Below, one piece after another: positions 1 through 26,471 of a DNA stretch of 64,000 bases. Both the position numbers and the translations under genes were made by a program. The notes beneath the pieces are model-generated. The model saw nothing but the letters and a program-made list of their open reading frames with translations. It had not been told where the DNA came from and did not search any database. Source of the stretch: Eledone cirrhosa (Eukaryota); NCBI GenBank assembly GCA_964016885.1, contig OZ024748.1, positions 26,226,001 through 26,290,000 of the forward strand. Reading direction: 5' to 3'. The stretch's first letter is position 1. Each line of letters begins with the position of its first letter.

Positions 1-6290
<6,290 letters not shown>

Positions 6291-13072: not shown

Positions 13073-13103
13073 ATAACAGCTGTCCATCAGTCATATGCAG
13101 TGG
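13073..13103 (+). CDS. Candidate 31-nt coding micro-exon (ITAVHQSYAV-), likely the end of the signal peptide of the VWA-mucin gene
   Basis: CTGAC branch-like motif, TTTTTTAATTTCAG acceptor, TGG/GTAAGT donor; ends in phase 1 and joins the VWA exon in frame to give ITAVHQSYA-VECYGDVADF, with S-x-A at -3/-1. Confidence 0.6.
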
Positions 13104-13154: not shown

Positions 13155-13760
13155 GAATTGTAGGTTATTAGGTGGTTGGCAGGTTTCTGGAAGTTAGTGT
13201 TGCAAATGGTTAGTGCACTTGCATCACAAAATTCAAGAAGCCTCACTCCTTCTTCATTTCTTGAGCCGTAACCGTGCCCACCATGTACCCCAGTGTAACC
13301 ATCCTGGAGCTGTCCAACATGACCATTGAAGTCCCCTGCCAGCATAACGATGTCTCCGTCCTCTGTCACTGTGGTTGTTTGTAAAAGTTGCTCGTAAAAG
13401 CAGTCTTTCTCTTCTTTACCTAGGCCTGCCTGGGGAGCATAGGCAGAGATGATTGTCAGTAGTCTCCTGCCTACAACTAATCTAAGCTTAATTATTCTAT
13501 TACTAACTTGAACTACCTCTATTGTCTTATCGATCCATCTCTCAGGCAGTAAAATGCCTACTCCACCTAACCCATCATCATTACCCACCCAGAAAAACTT
13601 ATAACTAAGATGTTTGCCTGCGATTAGTCTTGCAGAGGCACCTCTCCATCTCATCTCTTGCACGCAGCACACATCCACATGCCTTTTCTCCAGCATCTCC
13701 ACTATTTCACCAGATCTACCTGTTAGAGTGCTAACTCTGAGATGCAACGTCTTCATATTC
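13155..13760 (-). mobile_element. RTE-clade LINE fragment, APE endonuclease domain
   Basis: ORF 13091-13813: VDVCCVQEMRWRG, IISAYAPQ, GDFNGHVG, RNEEGVRLLEFC; truncated after HLITY. Confidence 0.9.
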
Positions 13761-14084
13761 TTGTTCTTTTTCCTATAGTGCGATTGCTTGATGACGGTAG
13801 GGGGTTCTCGCACATGGCCTCACCAGCCACCCCACTACTGTGCACAATTCTAACATGGTTAGTGTTATTGCTGTTTACGCAGTTGTTGCAATTCTTATCT
13901 GTTGTGCTCATAGTTTTTGGCAGTAGTATATATACTGGTTGGATGCCCTTCCTAACACCAGCACCACTTTACAGCATGGACTGGGTGCTTTTATTCATGC
14001 CACCAGCACTAAAGAGGTTGTCTTACTGGACTCAGGGGCCCTCTCTACCCTTCACACACACACACACACACACACACATATAAA

Positions 14085-14252
14085 GATAGTGTGGTAAGAA
14101 ACCAGGTGGACCATAACACACCAGAGTACTCAATACTTAGGGCAGTAGAGTGGGTAATAGGAAAAGAGTCATCACCCGGACGTTCGGTTTAGTTCGGATC
14201 TAGCTGTCGAAATGGCCAGAGCTCAGCCGTCGGGGTCCTGACTCTTTTCCTA
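14085..14252 (+). mobile_element. Small element with a degenerate hammerhead-like fold; homolog of 18681-18885
   Basis: Shared 5' part GTGGTAAG..ACCAGGTGGACCATAA..GAGTGGGTAATAGGAA; GAAA-TGGC..GCCG-TC-GGGGT with AAAAGAGTCA/TGACTCTTTT stem; the CTGANGA box is degenerate (CGGACGT). Confidence 0.55.
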
Positions 14253-15084
14253 TATATATATATATGAGAGAGTTAATTACATTACTAAATCTTTCCAAAT
14301 TCTTATTTTCAAAAATGATTTGAAAAACATTGGGTGTGTTTTTTATTAGAAATATGGTAAGGTTCAAGATTTTAAACTTGTTTTGTGACATTTTAACTTC
14401 CAGTTACAAGGATCTAATTTTATAAATAAAAATGTCTGGGGAAACTTTACATTCCTTGATTTTAAGCTATCAGCTGTGGATATTATTGCAAATATCTAGA
14501 TTATGAACACATCAGATTTCCATTGGAATAATGTTTCAGATATAAGATTTTGCCTTTGTAAAAAGAGCCATGCCAACCTTAATCCATTAATTTCAGTTCC
14601 TCTGATAAGAAGTTCTATTATCACTTCATATATCTCTAGCAAGAAAATGTTGTGTATGTGGCCACAGGTGTGAGCTGACATTAACTCTTTTGTTACCACA
14701 TTTCTAATGAAAGATATTACCTATGGTTTTCAAATCATGAAAATAATAATAATAAAGAAAAAACACTGGTGTTTGGAATCTAACTTAACAAGATTCTTAC
14801 ATAAAATTATGATGGAAGGCTTTTAACTAAATATAAACACCTTGACTTTTTGATTACCATATTTTTAACGAAAGAGACTGTCTATGGTTTTCAAATAATT
14901 TTGAAAATAAAAAATTAGAGGTATTTTAATTTTAACTAACTTTTTCATCATCAAGCAGGTATTTCGAGCATAACTTAAAAGTTCTTGCATAAAATTATGA
15001 CAGAGATTTGACTATGAGTAATTTTTTTTTTCAAGTTGGAAGAAAGTAGATCAGTTGTCAACATCAACATTATTGGTTGTTTGT

Positions 15085-16668: not shown

Positions 16669-17315
16669 ATCATCATCATCATCATTTTACGTCCGCTTTT
16701 CCCTGCTTGCAAGGGTGGGACAGGTCTTATTCAGCACAGCATCTCTCCACTCGTCACGGTCCCTCGTCATCTCCACCGTGAGCTTCAATGATCTGAGGTC
16801 TGTTCTCACCACTTCCGCCCATGTTTTTCGTGGTCTACCTCTACCACGTCTTCCTTCAACTGGCATTTCCTGGCACTTCTTCACCCATCGGTCATCCTCC
16901 ATGCGCATCACATGTCCATACCACCTCAGTCTCCTCTCCCGTACACTACATTCTATCCCTCTCAGACACAGTTTCTCTCTCAACACATTTATGCTGGGTC
17001 GTTCACGCACATTTACACTGCACATCCAATGGAGCATGCTTGCCTCATTTCTCTCCAGCCGTCGCATATCCTCTGCAGTTGCTGCCCATGTCTCACTACC
17101 ATGCAGCATCGCGCTCCTCACACAGGCATCATACAACCGGCCTTTCGTACGCAGGGAGAAACCCTTCTTCGTCAACAGAGGAAGCAGCTCCCTAAACTTC
17201 TTCCAACCCGTCCTTATTCTAGATACTATGGCCTCGGAACACCCTCCTCCCATGCTAATCTGATCTCCTAGGTACCGGAAGCTATCCACCATTTCTATAG
17301 CGCCCTCTTGCATTT
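16669..17315 (-). mobile_element. RTE-clade LINE 3' end (RT C-terminus) with (GAT)n tail
   Basis: ORF 16687-17313: FRYLG, KGRLYDACVRSAMLHGSETW, RRLRWYGHVMR, GRRGRGRPRKTW; (CAT)n at 16669-16685. Confidence 0.92.
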
Positions 17316-17368
17316 GAAAAATGTGTCTATCAGTGCGACTTCTACTGTCATATACATATATATATATC

Positions 17369-18030
17369 GAAAAAATGAAATTTCATTTCTCACTCTTAGT
17401 ACGGCTGATACTTAAATATAAATATATATACGTACATACATATATGTATACAGACGTACAGTAGTATGTATATACATATATATATACGTATGGGTTTACC
17501 GAACATTTATTATAATGTTCGGTTTGTTTGTAAACAAACAGCCCGAATTTAACCGTACAGTGTTTGGCAACCATCGTTGCCCTTTACGTATACATACTTA
17601 TATTTAAGTATCAGCCATACTAAGAGTGAGAAATGAAATTTCATTTTTCCATTTATCTTTTCGGTACGCCCGGCCGACTAACTCACTCGATATGCAAATT
17701 AGGCTGCTCAGCCGTTAATATGCATAAGGAAAGTATATACTTTCAAACGTTCAATCGACTGACAGGAAGGTATACGGTGCTGATGACAGCTAATAAGCTA
17801 GAAACTAGTTCATCGTTCCTTTGTCAGTGTTGAAAAAAAGGGCAACGATGGTTGCCAAACACTGTACGGCTTAATTCGGGCTGTTTGTTTACAAACAAAC
17901 CATACATTATAATAAATGTTCGGTAAACCCATACGTACATATATATATGTGTGCATGTATGTATATACATACTACTGTACGTCTGTATACATATATGTAT
18001 GTATGTATACATATATATATATATATATAT
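17369..18030. mobile_element. Inverted, circularly permuted element (A B A' C B') containing a hammerhead
   Basis: 17369-17420 is the inverse of 17598-17650; 17421-17585 is the inverse of 17838-18020; flanked by (TA)n. Confidence 0.75.
17758..17828 (+). ncRNA. Type I hammerhead ribozyme motif with minimal palindromic stem III
   Basis: ACGGTG-CTGATGA(17780)-cAGCTaataAGCTa-GAAA-CTAG-TT-CATCGT; stem I extended by ACTGACA..AAGG / CCTT.TGTCAGT; first stem II pair is a C/A mismatch. Confidence 0.7.
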
Positions 18031-18085
18031 ATATGATATTAATAAATGGAAACTATATCTATAAAACCATATTTACTCTATTATT

Positions 18086-18261
18086 CGCAGTATCGGTAGA
18101 GGGTTGGACGCCATGCTTTCTAGCATAGTTACATCCCTTTACGGTTTGAGTTCAAATCCCGCCAAGGTTAACTTTACCTTTCATCCTTACGGGGTCGGTA
18201 AAATAAAGTACCAGTAATGTACTGGATAATTGCTGGCCTTGTGCCTAAAAATAGAAACAAT
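18086..18261 (+). mobile_element. tRNA-derived SINE inserted in the palindrome arm
   Basis: GAGTTCAAATCCCGCC B-box; absent from the right arm. Confidence 0.85.
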
Positions 18262-18446
18262 TATATATATTTCAAGGGTACCAAAACTTTGGTACGATCT
18301 CATCAGATAAAATACAAAGTTTGTTTTACAAATATTGACATATCCAGGAAGGAGATCTTAATGGTTCAAGTTTTTCCTGGATAGTTGAAACTTGAACCGT
18401 TAAGATCTCCTTCCTGGATATGTCAATATTTATAAAACAAACTTTG

Positions 18447-18507
18447 TATTTTATCTGATGAGATCGTACGAAAGTTTTGGTACCCTTGAAATATATATAA
18501 TAGAATA
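18447..18507 (+). ncRNA. Type I hammerhead ribozyme motif
   Basis: TATTTTAT-CTGATGA(18455)-stem II GTAC..GTAC-GAAA-TATATA-TA-ATAGAATA; the 8-bp stem I pairs with one G-U. Confidence 0.7.
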
Positions 18508-18641
18508 AATATGGTTTTATAAATATAGTTTCCATTTATTAATACCATTGATATTATACTCCAGAAAATCTGTCGAGTGCTTCGAATCAGTTATAAACAT
18601 ATATATTTGTTGAATTACCAACAAATTAAATATCCCTTTTG

Positions 18642-18680
<39 letters not shown>

Positions 18681-18685
<5 letters not shown>

Positions 18686-18885
18686 AACAAGTAAGACCCC
18701 GACGGCTGAGCTCAAGCCGTTTCGACGGCTAATTCTGTACTCAGAATTGAGTACAGAATTAGCCGTCGAAACGGCTTGAGCTCAGCCATCGGGGTCTTAC
18801 TTGTTCCTATTACCCACTCTACTACCCTAAGTATTGAGTACTTTGGTGCATTATGGTCCACCTGGTTCCTTACCACATTTCCTTC
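18681..18885 (-). mobile_element. Element with a near-perfect 63-bp-arm hairpin (18681-18810, loop GAAT), inserted in (TA)n
   Basis: Arms are complementary with one mismatch; homologous to 14085-14252. Confidence 0.85.
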
Positions 18886-18903
18886 GTTATATATATATAT
18901 ATA

Positions 18904-19642
18904 TATCAAAATAAAGATCTGAAGGCATGGTATAAATTTCCAATCATTTTAATCATGACACCTGTTTCAATAAGAGATAGATCGATCGTGTAGCCATGAT
19001 CGATTATCACTGTTCTCGTCAGGTGAAAATGAATTGTCTTCAAATCCTTGATATTTCCAATTTACATCGTCAAATTGAGATTTGACCAATATAACATTTG
19101 TTGTTTTGTAAACTAACTTTCAGTGAATACTATGTTGGTATATTTATATATTTTTTCTTTGACCTCGTGTCAGTGTGTATGTACTCACTCACACTAACTG
19201 TGACCGTCTATAGTTCTACAGATTTTATGCTATGTTGGTATATGTATATATTTATTCTTTGACCTCGCGTCGTGTGTGTGTGAGTGTGTGTGTACCCACT
19301 CACATTAACTGTGACCGACTGTAATTCTACAGATTTGATTGATGTCCAGCGTCTTTTACAGTTATTGGGAGATAGAGACTTGATAGTTTTATGACCCTAA
19401 CTGAGGATGATATCAGTCGTAGTGTTTTGACTGCTTGATCTTCATATGAGGGACTAAACTCTGTGAGTGAACATTGTTAATTTTCTCCCTCATATCAAGG
19501 ATTTGAAGACAATTCATTTTCACCTGACGAGATCAGTGATAATCGATCATGGCTACACAATCGATCTATCTCTTATTGAAACATGTGTCGTGATTAAAAT
19601 GATTGGAAATTTATACCTTGCCTTCGGATCTTTATTTTGATA
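18904..19642. mobile_element. Element with about 150-bp inverted termini, each carrying a hammerhead; internal direct duplication of about 100 bp
   Basis: 18904-19054 is the inverse of 19492-19642; 19130-19226 is repeated at 19230-19336. Confidence 0.8.
19514..19602 (+). ncRNA. Type I hammerhead ribozyme motif (mirror copy on minus strand, 18944-19032)
   Basis: TCATTTTCAC-CTGACGA(19524)-long stem II with ATCGAT/ATCGAT-GAAA-CATGTG-TC-GTGA(tta)AAATGA. Confidence 0.75.
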
Positions 19643-20045
19643 CAAATACTGTTTTACATCATCTAGCTGTTCCCATAAATGGAATTGGAGATATACAAAA
19701 GCGTGGAGAACTTAATATTACTAACAAAGATTTATTGGACCGTTTGACACAACCAATAATACACCTTACTATATAACAACTATATATATATATATATGTA
19801 TATTTCATTACATAATAAACAACACAATATAATTATTCCATTACCAAAGGTTTCAAGAAACTAGATGACCTTTACAGAAACGTCTAGCCCATTCATCAGA
19901 TGAAAGAGTTATGTTTTGAAATTGATATCTATTAAAAATGAAAGTGAGGCTGAGTTAAAATAACATCCTATAACAGAAATATGTTTTTATATATATATAT
20001 ATATACACACATATATACATACATGCACACACACACACACATATA

Positions 20046-20466
20046 TTTTTATAATTTTTATTCTTTTTATAATTTTTTAAATATATATATTATTCAAAAT
20101 GTTAATAAATGAAAAATATTCTCATAATCAAAATATATATTTTATTGTACATATTTCAAAGGTACAATGGTGTTTAAGTACGTTTTCATCAGATAAAATA
20201 TATGATTTGATATGTGACATACCGCTACGGTTTTGATTATTCAATTCCAGTATTGGCAGTACTGGAATTGAATAATCAAAACTGTAGCGGTATGTCACAT
20301 ATCAAATCATATATTTTATCTGATGAAAACGTACTTAAACACCATTGTACCTTTGAAATATGTACAATAAAATATATATTTTGATTATGAGAATATTTTT
20401 CATTTATTAACATTTTGAATAATATATATATTTAAAAAATTATAAAAATAATAAAAATTATAAAAA
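20046..20466. repeat. Near-perfect 420-bp palindrome centred at 20256, with a hammerhead-like motif in both arms (U16.1 replaced by C)
   Basis: TCATCAG 20186-20192 mirrors CTGATGA 20320-20326; ATATTTTAT-CTGATGA..GAAA-TATGTA-CA-ATAAAATAT; same architecture as 18447-18507. Confidence 0.88.
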
Positions 20467-20478
20467 TTAACAGCGTAT

Positions 20479-20557
<79 letters not shown>

Positions 20558-20666
20558 ATGTATGTATATTTATGTGTGTATATATACAAACATTTTTCTG
20601 TTATAGGATGTTATTTTAACTCAGCCTCACTTTCATTTTTAATAGATATCAATTTCAAAAGATAAC

Positions 20667-20740
20667 TATTTCATCTGATGAATGGGGCGGACGTTTCTCT
20701 AAGGATCGTCAAGTTTCTTGAAACCTTTGGTAATGGAATA
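20667..20740 (+). ncRNA. Type I hammerhead ribozyme motif (mirror copy on minus strand, 19834-19906)
   Basis: TATTTCAT-CTGATGA(20675)-degenerate stem II-GAAA-CCTTTGG-TA-ATGGAATA. Confidence 0.68.
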
Positions 20741-20930
20741 ATTATATTGTGTTGTTTATTATGTAATTAAATAGCTCTGTACAATACATAGAGCACTCTT
20801 CTTTCCTTTACCTTTTCTACGGAAATACTTAACATATATATATATATATATATATATATACTCTTTTACCTGTTCCAGTCACCTGACTGAGGCCATACTG
20901 GGGCATCACCCTTATATATATATATAGATA

Positions 20931-21616
20931 TATTAGGATTGGTGTTCTGAAACAGCGATGTATACATGAATGTATGTATAGTATATTTGGCAATATACCG
21001 TGTGTTTAGTTAAAAACATTTAGAAGACCATACACTATTGGTTTTAAAGTGGTGACTATGTCACTTACTTCTTTTCGGCGAAAGAAGGGAGAGAAGCTAA
21101 CAGTCTGTTTCACGCTGGTTGGCGATCACGCTTCTTCCGCCGAAAATGATAGAAGCTAGATTCTTATAGAATTCCAGTAATAATCAGGAGCTTATTATAC
21201 AGAGCGATTGCCAGTCCAGAAAATATTAGGTATTAGGATTGGTGCTGTGAAATAGCGATGTATACATGAATGTATACCATACAGTATATTGCCAAATATA
21301 CTATATATACATTCATGTATACATCGCTATTTCAGAGCACCAATACTAATACCTAATTTTTGCTGGACCGGCAATCGCTCTGTATAATCAACTCCTGATT
21401 ATTACTGGAATTCTATAAGAATCCAGCTTCTATAATTTTCGGCGGAAGCAGAGGGTGCGTGGCTCTGATGATTGCCTACCAGCATGAAACAGAGTGTTAG
21501 CTTCTCTCCCTTCTTTCGCTGAAAAGAAGTGACATAGTCACTACTTTAAAACTGATAGCATATGGTCTTCTAAATGTTTTTAACTAAACATACGGGATAT
21601 TGCCAAATATACTATA
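20931..21616. mobile_element. About 300-bp monomer element as inverted partial-tandem copies, with a hammerhead
   Basis: TATTAGGATTGGTG..GCGATGTATACATGAATG recurs at 20931 and 21231; 20976-21277 is the inverse of about 21305-21616. Confidence 0.8.
21461..21502 (+). ncRNA. Type I hammerhead ribozyme motif
   Basis: GGCT-CTGATGA(21465)-tTGCctaccaGCAt-GAAA-CAGAGTG-TT-AGCT; the left-arm copy has lost the CTGATGA box by deletion. Confidence 0.65.
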
Positions 21617-24300: not shown

Positions 24301-24917
24301 GGCTGGTTTTGTTTCATAGAACCAAAATGCAAATGGCCACTTGAAAATAGTTATCTCAACTATGATTTTTAAATATTTGTTTGAAAACATGTCTTGCCAT
24401 ATTGCAGTGATTTTTGGTGGTCTTATTTGTGCCAGTCACTAATCTGGTACTTTCCTCAGCCTCGTGAAACTATGGTCATGAATCTTGGGTAATGACTGAA
24501 AGAATATGACTGCTTGGGGATCCAACTAGATTAATTGGAGATGGTTGCTTCTTACAGGACCTGCTGGAAGGAGTTTGAGGACTCTGCCACCATGACCCTT
24601 CCAGGAACAAATGGGAGAAGAAGGTTTGAAAACATTCACTCAGACATGACATTTGTGAAATATATTTTAAAATTATTAATAATTTATTCTGATAAAATAA
24701 TAGTTTCCTTTAAACTAAAATATTTTCTCCAGCAAATACTGAGTGAGTTTATCATTTGGGAATTTAGCCAGAATATTGAAAATTCCTAGAGAATTTCAAT
24801 TATTTGTTTGTATTTCATAAATTTATCTAAAAACTAACCTTTGTCTGCATCTTAACACTTCAAACATGCATAAACAGACACATAAACATGTACATCCATA
24901 AATTATGCATAAAAATA

Positions 24918-25514: not shown

Positions 25515-26066
25515 AATGCTATGGAGATGTAGCAGACTTTGTATTTGTTCTGGATTCCTCTAGCAGTATTTGGCCTCCTGATTATGAAAGACTACGGTCA
25601 TTTGTTAATAATTTTGCACAAAATTACGATATTGGTCAAGGACCATGTCAGATAAAAATGAGTGTGATATCGTACAGTGACAAGGCCCACATAGACATAC
25701 CATTGGATAAATTCAAAAACAGGCAGGCTGTCTCAGATGCAATAAAAAAAGTCCCTTATAGAATGGGACAGACAAACACAGCTGCTGCTCTGGCTCTTAC
25801 AAAGAAAGTTTTTGAACGCCCTTACCCACAACCTGAAAGACCTCAAGTTGCCATTATTGTCACTGATGGAGTATCAGACAATCCTCTACAAACAAGAAGA
25901 AATGCACAGAAACTAAAGGATGCTGGCATCCATACTTATTCTGTCGGAGTTGGAAACAATGTTGATTTAAATGAATTAGTGGACATTACCAGTGAGTATC
26001 CACAAGGAGTTGTTCGTGTACCCAGCTACAGAGCTCTTGAGAAAATTGCTATCAGCTTTAACGTCA
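25515..26066 (+). CDS. Exon encoding a von Willebrand factor A (VWA) domain, matrilin/collagen VI-like, with intact MIDAS
   Basis: ADFVFVLDSSSSI (DxSxS), GQTNTAAAL (T), IIVTDG (D), YSVGVG; CTAAC branch plus TTTCTCCACAG acceptor; CA/GTGAGT donor; 552 nt, phase 1-1. Confidence 0.93.
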
Positions 26067-26313: not shown

Positions 26314-26471
26314 CCATATTTCCCAGCACCGAAGATGCTTTTCCTAAATTTTTGACAACCAAAAATTTGAAAAAAACTAATAAACAACCTTCGGCCTCCA
26401 GGGCGCATGGTAGATTTTTGAGACTTATTTTAGGGAAAAAAAAGTAGCGTTTTCGACGCCGGGAAATACGG
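26314..26471. mobile_element. 158-bp MITE, Tc1/mariner-pogo type
   Basis: TIRs CCATATTTCCCAGCACCGAAGATGCT and AGCGTTTTCGACGCCGGGAAATACGG, flanked by TA on both sides. Confidence 0.8.

Follow-up and report, generated by a model that had tools for sequence, protein, structure and literature searches.

The subject of this analysis is a nest of repeated elements at positions 17369-21616 of a 64,000-nucleotide (nt) stretch of the Eledone cirrhosa contig OZ024748.1; the whole stretch is termed the window and its numbering is used throughout. The nest very probably consists of seven retroelement insertions in (TA)n, those of families B, C, E and G being truncated 3' ends of Hydra-like Penelope elements, those of A and F tandem retrozymes probably put in place by an enzyme of that kind, and that of D unassigned. 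The 3' end takes two fixed forms in each family, a short and a long one, and the plus-strand hammerhead motifs are located in the right arm of a long inverted repeat.

Read from left to right, the nest opens with the inverted arm of family A (17369-17585, minus strand), which is 5'-truncated, has the long end (the tail) and carries no hammerhead. The direct arm of A (17585-18012, plus) joins the end of one ~420-nt monomer to the next, places its short end at (TA)n and is apparently a retrozyme free of open reading frames (ORFs); its type I hammerhead occupies 17774-17816 (plus; core 17780) with predicted cleavage after 17810. The short-ended inverted arm of B (18032-18373, minus) is split by an insertion resembling a short interspersed element (SINE) at ~18085-18259, and the tailed direct arm (18388-18643, plus), apparently a Hydra-like 3' end, has a hammerhead at 18447-18507 predicted to be cut after 18499. 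Family G is represented by an inverted arm with the short end (18682-18743, minus) and a tailed direct arm (18748-18887, plus) truncated inside stem II, in which GAAA, stem III and the cut site remain. The inverted arm of C (18904-19054, minus) likewise has the short end and holds mirror core 19022; its direct arm (19055-19780, plus), apparently a Hydra-like 3' untranslated end, has a tail of ~130 nt and core 19524, with a predicted cut after 19589. Family D is interrupted by E. Its inverted arm (19801-20041, minus) has the short end and an intact mirror hammerhead (core 19899), and its direct arm (20533-20834, plus), to which no ORF was traced, has a ~60-nt tail and a hammerhead at 20667-20740 with a predicted cut after 20732. 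Between them lie the inverted arm of E (20045-20255, minus), composed of E sequence at 20082-20255 and ~37 nt of mirrored D 5' sequence, and the direct arm (20257-20482, plus), apparently a Hydra-like 3' end nested in D, which runs as E to 20430 with core 20320 and then as inverted D 5' sequence. Family F closes the nest with a long-ended inverted arm (20931-21276, minus) whose core strand is deleted, and a short-ended direct arm (21278-21616, plus), apparently again an ORF-less retrozyme, that comprises a ~311-nt monomer and part of the preceding one, and within which the plus-strand hammerhead (core 21465) is predicted to be cut after 21498.

The hammerhead motifs of the nest are real, as predicted ribozymes. 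A type I descriptor run on both strands of 17369-21616 finds 6 motifs with stem I of at least 4 bp against 0 in 500 dinucleotide shuffles, a comparison of motif density proposed in an earlier note on this DNA, and CUGANGA alone occurs 11 times (1.06 expected). The plus-strand cores with pairable stems that the earlier note listed at 17780, 18455, 19524, 20675 and 21465 are found exactly there, its mutated core 20320 carries a U16.1 to C change that is present in both E arms of the region, and the (TA)n flanks it described are confirmed. Mirror copies, claimed there for most cores, do exist for four of the six (18306, 19022, 19899, 20192), but only 19899 passes the strict descriptor: stem I of 18306 is interrupted by the SINE-like insertion, the first stem I pair of 19022 is mismatched, and 20192 shares the U16.1C change of core 20320. 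CUGAUGA is deleted from the mirror of 21465, and the region has no mirror core for 17780. The count of about five families falls short of the seven recognized here, six at the listed cores and G (18682-18887), which was overlooked because the region's G copy starts inside stem II and retains only the 3' half of the hammerhead. An Rfam scan gave no hammerhead family among 111 regional matches to E 10, nor among the best 150 of 358 window-wide; the matches are only microRNA-type hairpins below gathering score.

In the motifs at 18455, 19524 and 20675 stem II is long, at 26-47 nt, and stem III is short and nearly palindromic. Stem covariation, a further check suggested in the earlier note, was counted for B and E alone, in an alignment of 35 rows that includes one false row (L192). 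In it 92.9% of cells are paired, 6 of the 9 stem II pairs change on both sides, and both-side changes number 44 against 16.3 in shuffles, a control that the relatedness of the B/E sequences inflates; all slid controls are lower. Full copies of G have the core UUGANAA, with a variable position 7, in 18 of 19 distinct sequences, which amounts to a U3:A8 swap. Most ribozymes of the nest are nonetheless probably inactive, because they are mutated, truncated or paired to a mirror arm. Folding of the plus-strand read-through RNA predicts P = 1.00 for pairing between the mirror arm and the cores of B, C, D and E, and stem I is kept by A only (P 0.82); of the hammerheads, that of A (core 17780) alone escapes pairing to a mirror arm.

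Families B, C, E and G appear to be the 5'-truncated 3' ends of Hydra-like Penelope elements that have reverse transcriptase (RT) and GIY-YIG ORFs upstream in longer copies. No RT or GIY-YIG coding sequence was found in the nest region, in agreement with the earlier note; a C-terminal GIY-YIG with RT upstream of the hammerhead end is found in other copies of all four families and not in the window. Among 40 loci fetched around matches to the Hydra-type endonuclease, 34 have an E- or B-type end downstream on the same strand, mostly 1.2-1.5 kb away (the B match in L233 is 96%). Walking in the 5' direction reached the family's own endonuclease in 13 of 30 loci for C and in 6 of 30 for G, and a complete unit of inverted copy, ORF and direct copy is present in L234, L345, L347 and L348. 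In C, E and G the protein has a CxCX5C linker, no CCHH pair between GIY and YIG, and CxxC and CxH around the E and N; the linker and the RT motifs agree by eye with the Hydra alignment in the supplement of PMC8557442 (this and the other papers cited were available in part, and statements about them refer to those parts). The endonuclease of B is known by tblastn similarity only, at 67-94% to that of E. An N-terminal RWK motif is present in one C copy (L348), the 5' ends of the ORFs being mostly missing. A protein search gave 1,697 relatives, which are unnamed or "hypothetical" among the matches listed. Insertion in (TA)n, an inverted 5'-truncated copy and a one-sided tail are features of all four families, E being excepted in 3 of 5 pairs for the tail. 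Another young Hydra-like family, with copies 98-99% identical, was seen in L391-L420; it ends in a hammerhead-like fold (L392:2610-2670 and L396, sense-oriented) whose 5' core strand is CAGAAGA (U4 to A).

The earlier note had taken all families of the nest to be non-autonomous ribozyme-bearing retroelements, as would fit a region without coding sequence, the ORF-less tandem units of A and F, and the lack of a traced ORF in D. For four of the seven families this is refuted, since B, C, E and G run upstream into RT and GIY-YIG ORFs elsewhere, including a G copy with an open RT-endonuclease frame of 494 codons, and as an account of the whole nest it is very improbable; what stands of it is the non-autonomous status of A and F. 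Its broader picture, a local cluster of Penelope-related, hammerhead-bearing inverted insertions, is borne out, and the link from families to Penelope ORFs through genome-wide copies that it foresaw was achieved for B, C, E and G. Next to no credence is due to the idea of miniature inverted-repeat transposable elements or foldback DNA transposons whose terminal inverted repeats contain an incidental hammerhead match. Long inverted repeats, TA-rich targets and the lack of an ORF in place would suit such elements, but variable 5' truncation with fixed 3' ends, the unpaired single arms that make up about half of the copies, the upstream RT ORFs and the covarying stem II contradict them.

Judged by sequence, families A and F repeat head to tail without an ORF, in units of ~420 and ~311 nt, which makes them retrozymes lacking long terminal repeats (non-LTR retrozymes), with a putative circular RNA. 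Direct repeats are spaced 414-434 nt apart in 8 of 25 A loci and 281-322 nt apart in 13 of 25 F loci, and the family's own 3' end is found directly upstream of the monomer in both; two A cores lie one period apart in L044, as do two or more F cut sites in L123 and L129. The monomers have a GC content of 37-38%, their longest ATG frames are 98 and 40 codons, and neither RT nor endonuclease is contained within the unit. An alternative is that A and F represent pieces of the terminal repeats of autonomous elements with an overlooked ORF, their tandem form arising by local duplication and not from circular or multimeric RNA. It gains from the scope of the tandem test (for each family the best 25 copies, in most cases flanked by 1.5 kb), from the DNA-only nature of the evidence, and from a preprint that proposes local amplification from a terminal repeat (bioRxiv 10.64898/2026.07.22.740005). 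We hold it to be quite unlikely, as the monomer follows its own 3' end at many independent places, spread over different contigs, and each family keeps to one period; the circular monomers are predicted to fold far below shuffles (z -9.7 for A and -5.0 for F); and no endonuclease precedes any of 31 F loci, while among 45 A loci one does so once, behind another family's own end, in a sample that favours B and E and in which most A, D and F loci carry 1.5 kb of flank only. Family D, traced for ~700 nt through TG/TA-rich sequence with four copies stopping at one 5' point, shows neither property: an ORF is found upstream on the same strand in 0 of 29 loci, and no tandem junction in 30 + 20 loci. 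A link of D to the ORFs adjacent to it in L339-L341 was rejected, as these ORFs point away and the ORF family of L341 has its own, different terminus.

Families A and F share an integration footprint with the Penelope ends. Of 161 copies outside the window, 140 have (TA)4 no more than 100 nt from the 3' end, against 628 of 3,960 background bins, and 79 have a head-to-head arm. Where pairs could be scored, window copies included, one arm has the short and the other the long end in 62 of 72: 10 of 11 for B, 10 of 12 for C, 5 of 6 distinct loci for D, 20 of 21 for G (the direct arm being long by selection), and, where both ends are displayed, 7 of 8 for A and 8 of 9 for F (15/17 together). The arms of a pair have 7.4 private variants per kb in common, compared with 1.8 per kb for arms of different loci; this roughly fourfold excess indicates that a pair is one event from one source. 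In vitro, a Penelope protein cleaves both DNA strands and extends them, and it initiates at two internal sites, which are the limits of the tail (PMC11167929). The GIY-YIG nuclease of the element would nick both strands of (TA)n, and at each nick the RT would prime one complementary DNA (cDNA), using two internal start sites on the RNA. The two cDNAs would stop early and their 5' ends would join to give a head-to-head pair with the short end on one side and the tailed end on the other. The insertion would stay flanked by (TA)n, a target for the next insertion, and a nest could be built in this way; the hammerheads are carried over with the terminal repeat, of which they form part. Priming from both nicks at two sites is, we infer, the simplest reading of the paired ends.

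The inverted arm could instead have been made at the DNA level, by a cDNA that folds back and primes itself (or by later hairpin repair), with no second target-primed event. Self-priming has been argued for in PMC3846280 and would explain the private variants common to both arms; moreover the E pair of the window looks like such a case, its palindrome including the ~37 nt of flanking D sequence on both sides and its arms both ending short and differing at 3 of ~209 positions. Fold-back predicts stops anywhere or at the same end, yet in most pairs the second arm stops at the fixed alternative end, often the longer one, and no other clear mirrored unique flank was found among 83 pairs (with low-complexity flank masked), six matches being family tails or neighbouring repeats. 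Snap-back was dismissed as a general rule, a second clear case being absent from those pairs, and as the source of the inverted arms it is unlikely, if the strongest of the alternatives considered.

Target-primed insertion from both nicks has points to its debit as well, as does the assignment of the families. E obeys the one-tail rule in only 2 of 5 pairs, the window's pair being among the 3 exceptions, and short/short pairs occur in E only. A tail-to-tail neighbour accompanies 20 of the 161 copies, 11 of these being A, whose AT-rich palindromes confound the count. Because A and F have no sequence link to any ORF-bearing family, it is the footprint that points to their mobilising enzyme, and most A, D and F loci were examined with the short flank. 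In local folds stem I of B, D and F is predicted not to form. Placement of the elements as Hydra-like draws on motifs and not on a tree with reference Hydra proteins; the Hydra traits of B derive from similarity to E, the linker of B not being among those read, and in Pfam six ORF pieces yielded one weak RVT_1 match (E 0.00075, below cut-off). The chances appear evenly balanced that A and F are circular-RNA retrozymes copied in by Penelope-like enzymes, as their (TA)n, head-to-head arm and exactly one tail would show, and that these, with the one-short/one-long rule over six families, provide the first genomic evidence for Penelope-driven retrozyme mobility and for double-ended two-site priming in vivo. 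A literature search, with subscription papers mostly outside it, found no report of retrozyme insertions that bear a Penelope footprint.

The nest is unusually dense, but its components are common in the genome. A first look at the 3.0-Gb assembly gave 1,113 to 3,091 candidates per family, with identities of 83-99% among the 40 scored. In 40 stretches of 10 kb at round coordinates (400 kb), a descriptor stricter on stem II, which finds 4 and not 6 motifs in the nest region, detects 36 hammerhead motifs against 1 after shuffling, or ~1 per 11 kb, from which a genome total of a few hundred thousand is estimated by extrapolation. BLAST with the seven families gives 50 matches in this sample, with 5 in the densest 4.25 kb and a mean of 0.5, and 15 segments in the nest region, seven of them self-matches by construction. 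The hotspot proposed in the earlier note thus holds as a local one, but type I hammerheads are frequent genome-wide. The same sample (L351-L390) contains at least 8 further hammerhead families unrelated to the seven of the nest, several as opposite-strand pairs, and within the window a diverged G-type copy with a short inverted arm and tail lies outside the nest at 14090-14260 (minus).

As to the surroundings, positions 1-6250 of the window are ~6 kb of nearly pure (TA)n-type microsatellite with a GC content of 4-7%. Fragments of a non-LTR long interspersed element (LINE), consisting of a 3' part of the RT and a part of the endonuclease, lie on the minus strand at 16690-17382 and 13340-13820, and we take them to be of the RTE type. 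A very abundant short repeat is found at 26340-26460, where the summed contig depth climbs from ~10 to over 40,000. Downstream of the nest there is a vWA exon (25515-26066), followed at 28023-64000 (plus) by one open frame of 11,992 codons, 46% of them Thr, built of 27-nt and 429-nt repeats and running on for a further 3,299 codons in the 9.9 kb that follow the window (L152); it resembles a mucin-like exon of over 45 kb. A splice-site scan finds a well-formed 31-nt exon upstream of the nest (13073-13103, phase 0-to-1) that would join the vWA exon in phase across it, and a candidate first exon also downstream of the nest (24646-24742). The nest may plausibly be intronic, as the earlier note has it. 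A homologue search with the vWA exon found no orthologue (best identity 40%), and the reads of three sets over this exon pass both of its borders like DNA and so are uninformative on splicing and cleavage.

The locus itself is ordinary transposon debris, and its value is comparative: the ends of autonomous Penelope elements and ORF-less retrozymes adjoin here, and both bear one set of integration marks. Published work already covers hammerheads at the ends of Penelope elements, their inverted pairs, the targeting of (TA)n, the Hydra clade in octopus, and mollusc retrozymes; the families of the nest are new families of known kinds, plus one mechanistic lead. The enzyme that moves animal retrozymes is stated as an open question in PMC7229834, and in the available part of bioRxiv 10.64898/2026.07.22.740005 retrozyme mobility is argued solely from co-occurrence and terminal-repeat trees; the shared footprint makes the question testable. 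The one-tail rule also connects the inverted structure of Penelope insertions, so far unexplained, with the in vitro result of two start sites and both strands.

The closest known system is the Hydra clade, including Hydra-1_Obim, with its (TA)n preference, hammerhead, 5' truncation, adjacent inverted copy and tail on one end (PMC8557442). The nest-related elements share with that clade the C-terminal GIY-YIG, the CxCX5C linker and the CxxC and CxH around the conserved E and N, as well as a canonical hammerhead near the 3' end, the (TA)n target, strong 5' truncation, an inverted 5'-truncated copy and the one-end tail. They differ in 3' untranslated ends of 1.1-1.5 kb, in tails of ~60-130 nt rather than 30-40, and in the U3:A8 core and long stem III of G, and the hammerhead flanks listed for Hydra-1_Obim differ from those of all seven families. 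The minimal hammerheads of Penelope-like elements in PMC4209133 likewise have a long stem II and a short palindromic stem III, occur in opposite-strand pairs separated by 100-700 bp, and come mostly from truncated elements; U3-A8 covariation is described there in Schistosoma Cercyon, and unlike in Cercyon, U3:A8 is here found in a Hydra-like family, G, whose stem III has 6 bp and whose loop II is ~45 nt long. Families A and F resemble metazoan non-LTR retrozymes (PMC7229834; bioRxiv 10.64898/2026.07.22.740005) in being short ORF-less head-to-tail units with one type I hammerhead each and in having a GC content under 45% and a strongly folded monomer. Unlike the retrozymes described in those parts, they are mostly dispersed 1-1.5-mers with an inverted arm, a one-sided tail and (TA)n ends. 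The PAc Poseidon element of Anolis, finally, also has two RT start sites that define a tail and has both strands of AT-rich DNA cut and extended (PMC11167929); it belongs to another clade, was studied in vitro, and genomic pairs with one short and one long end are not counted in the available part of that work.

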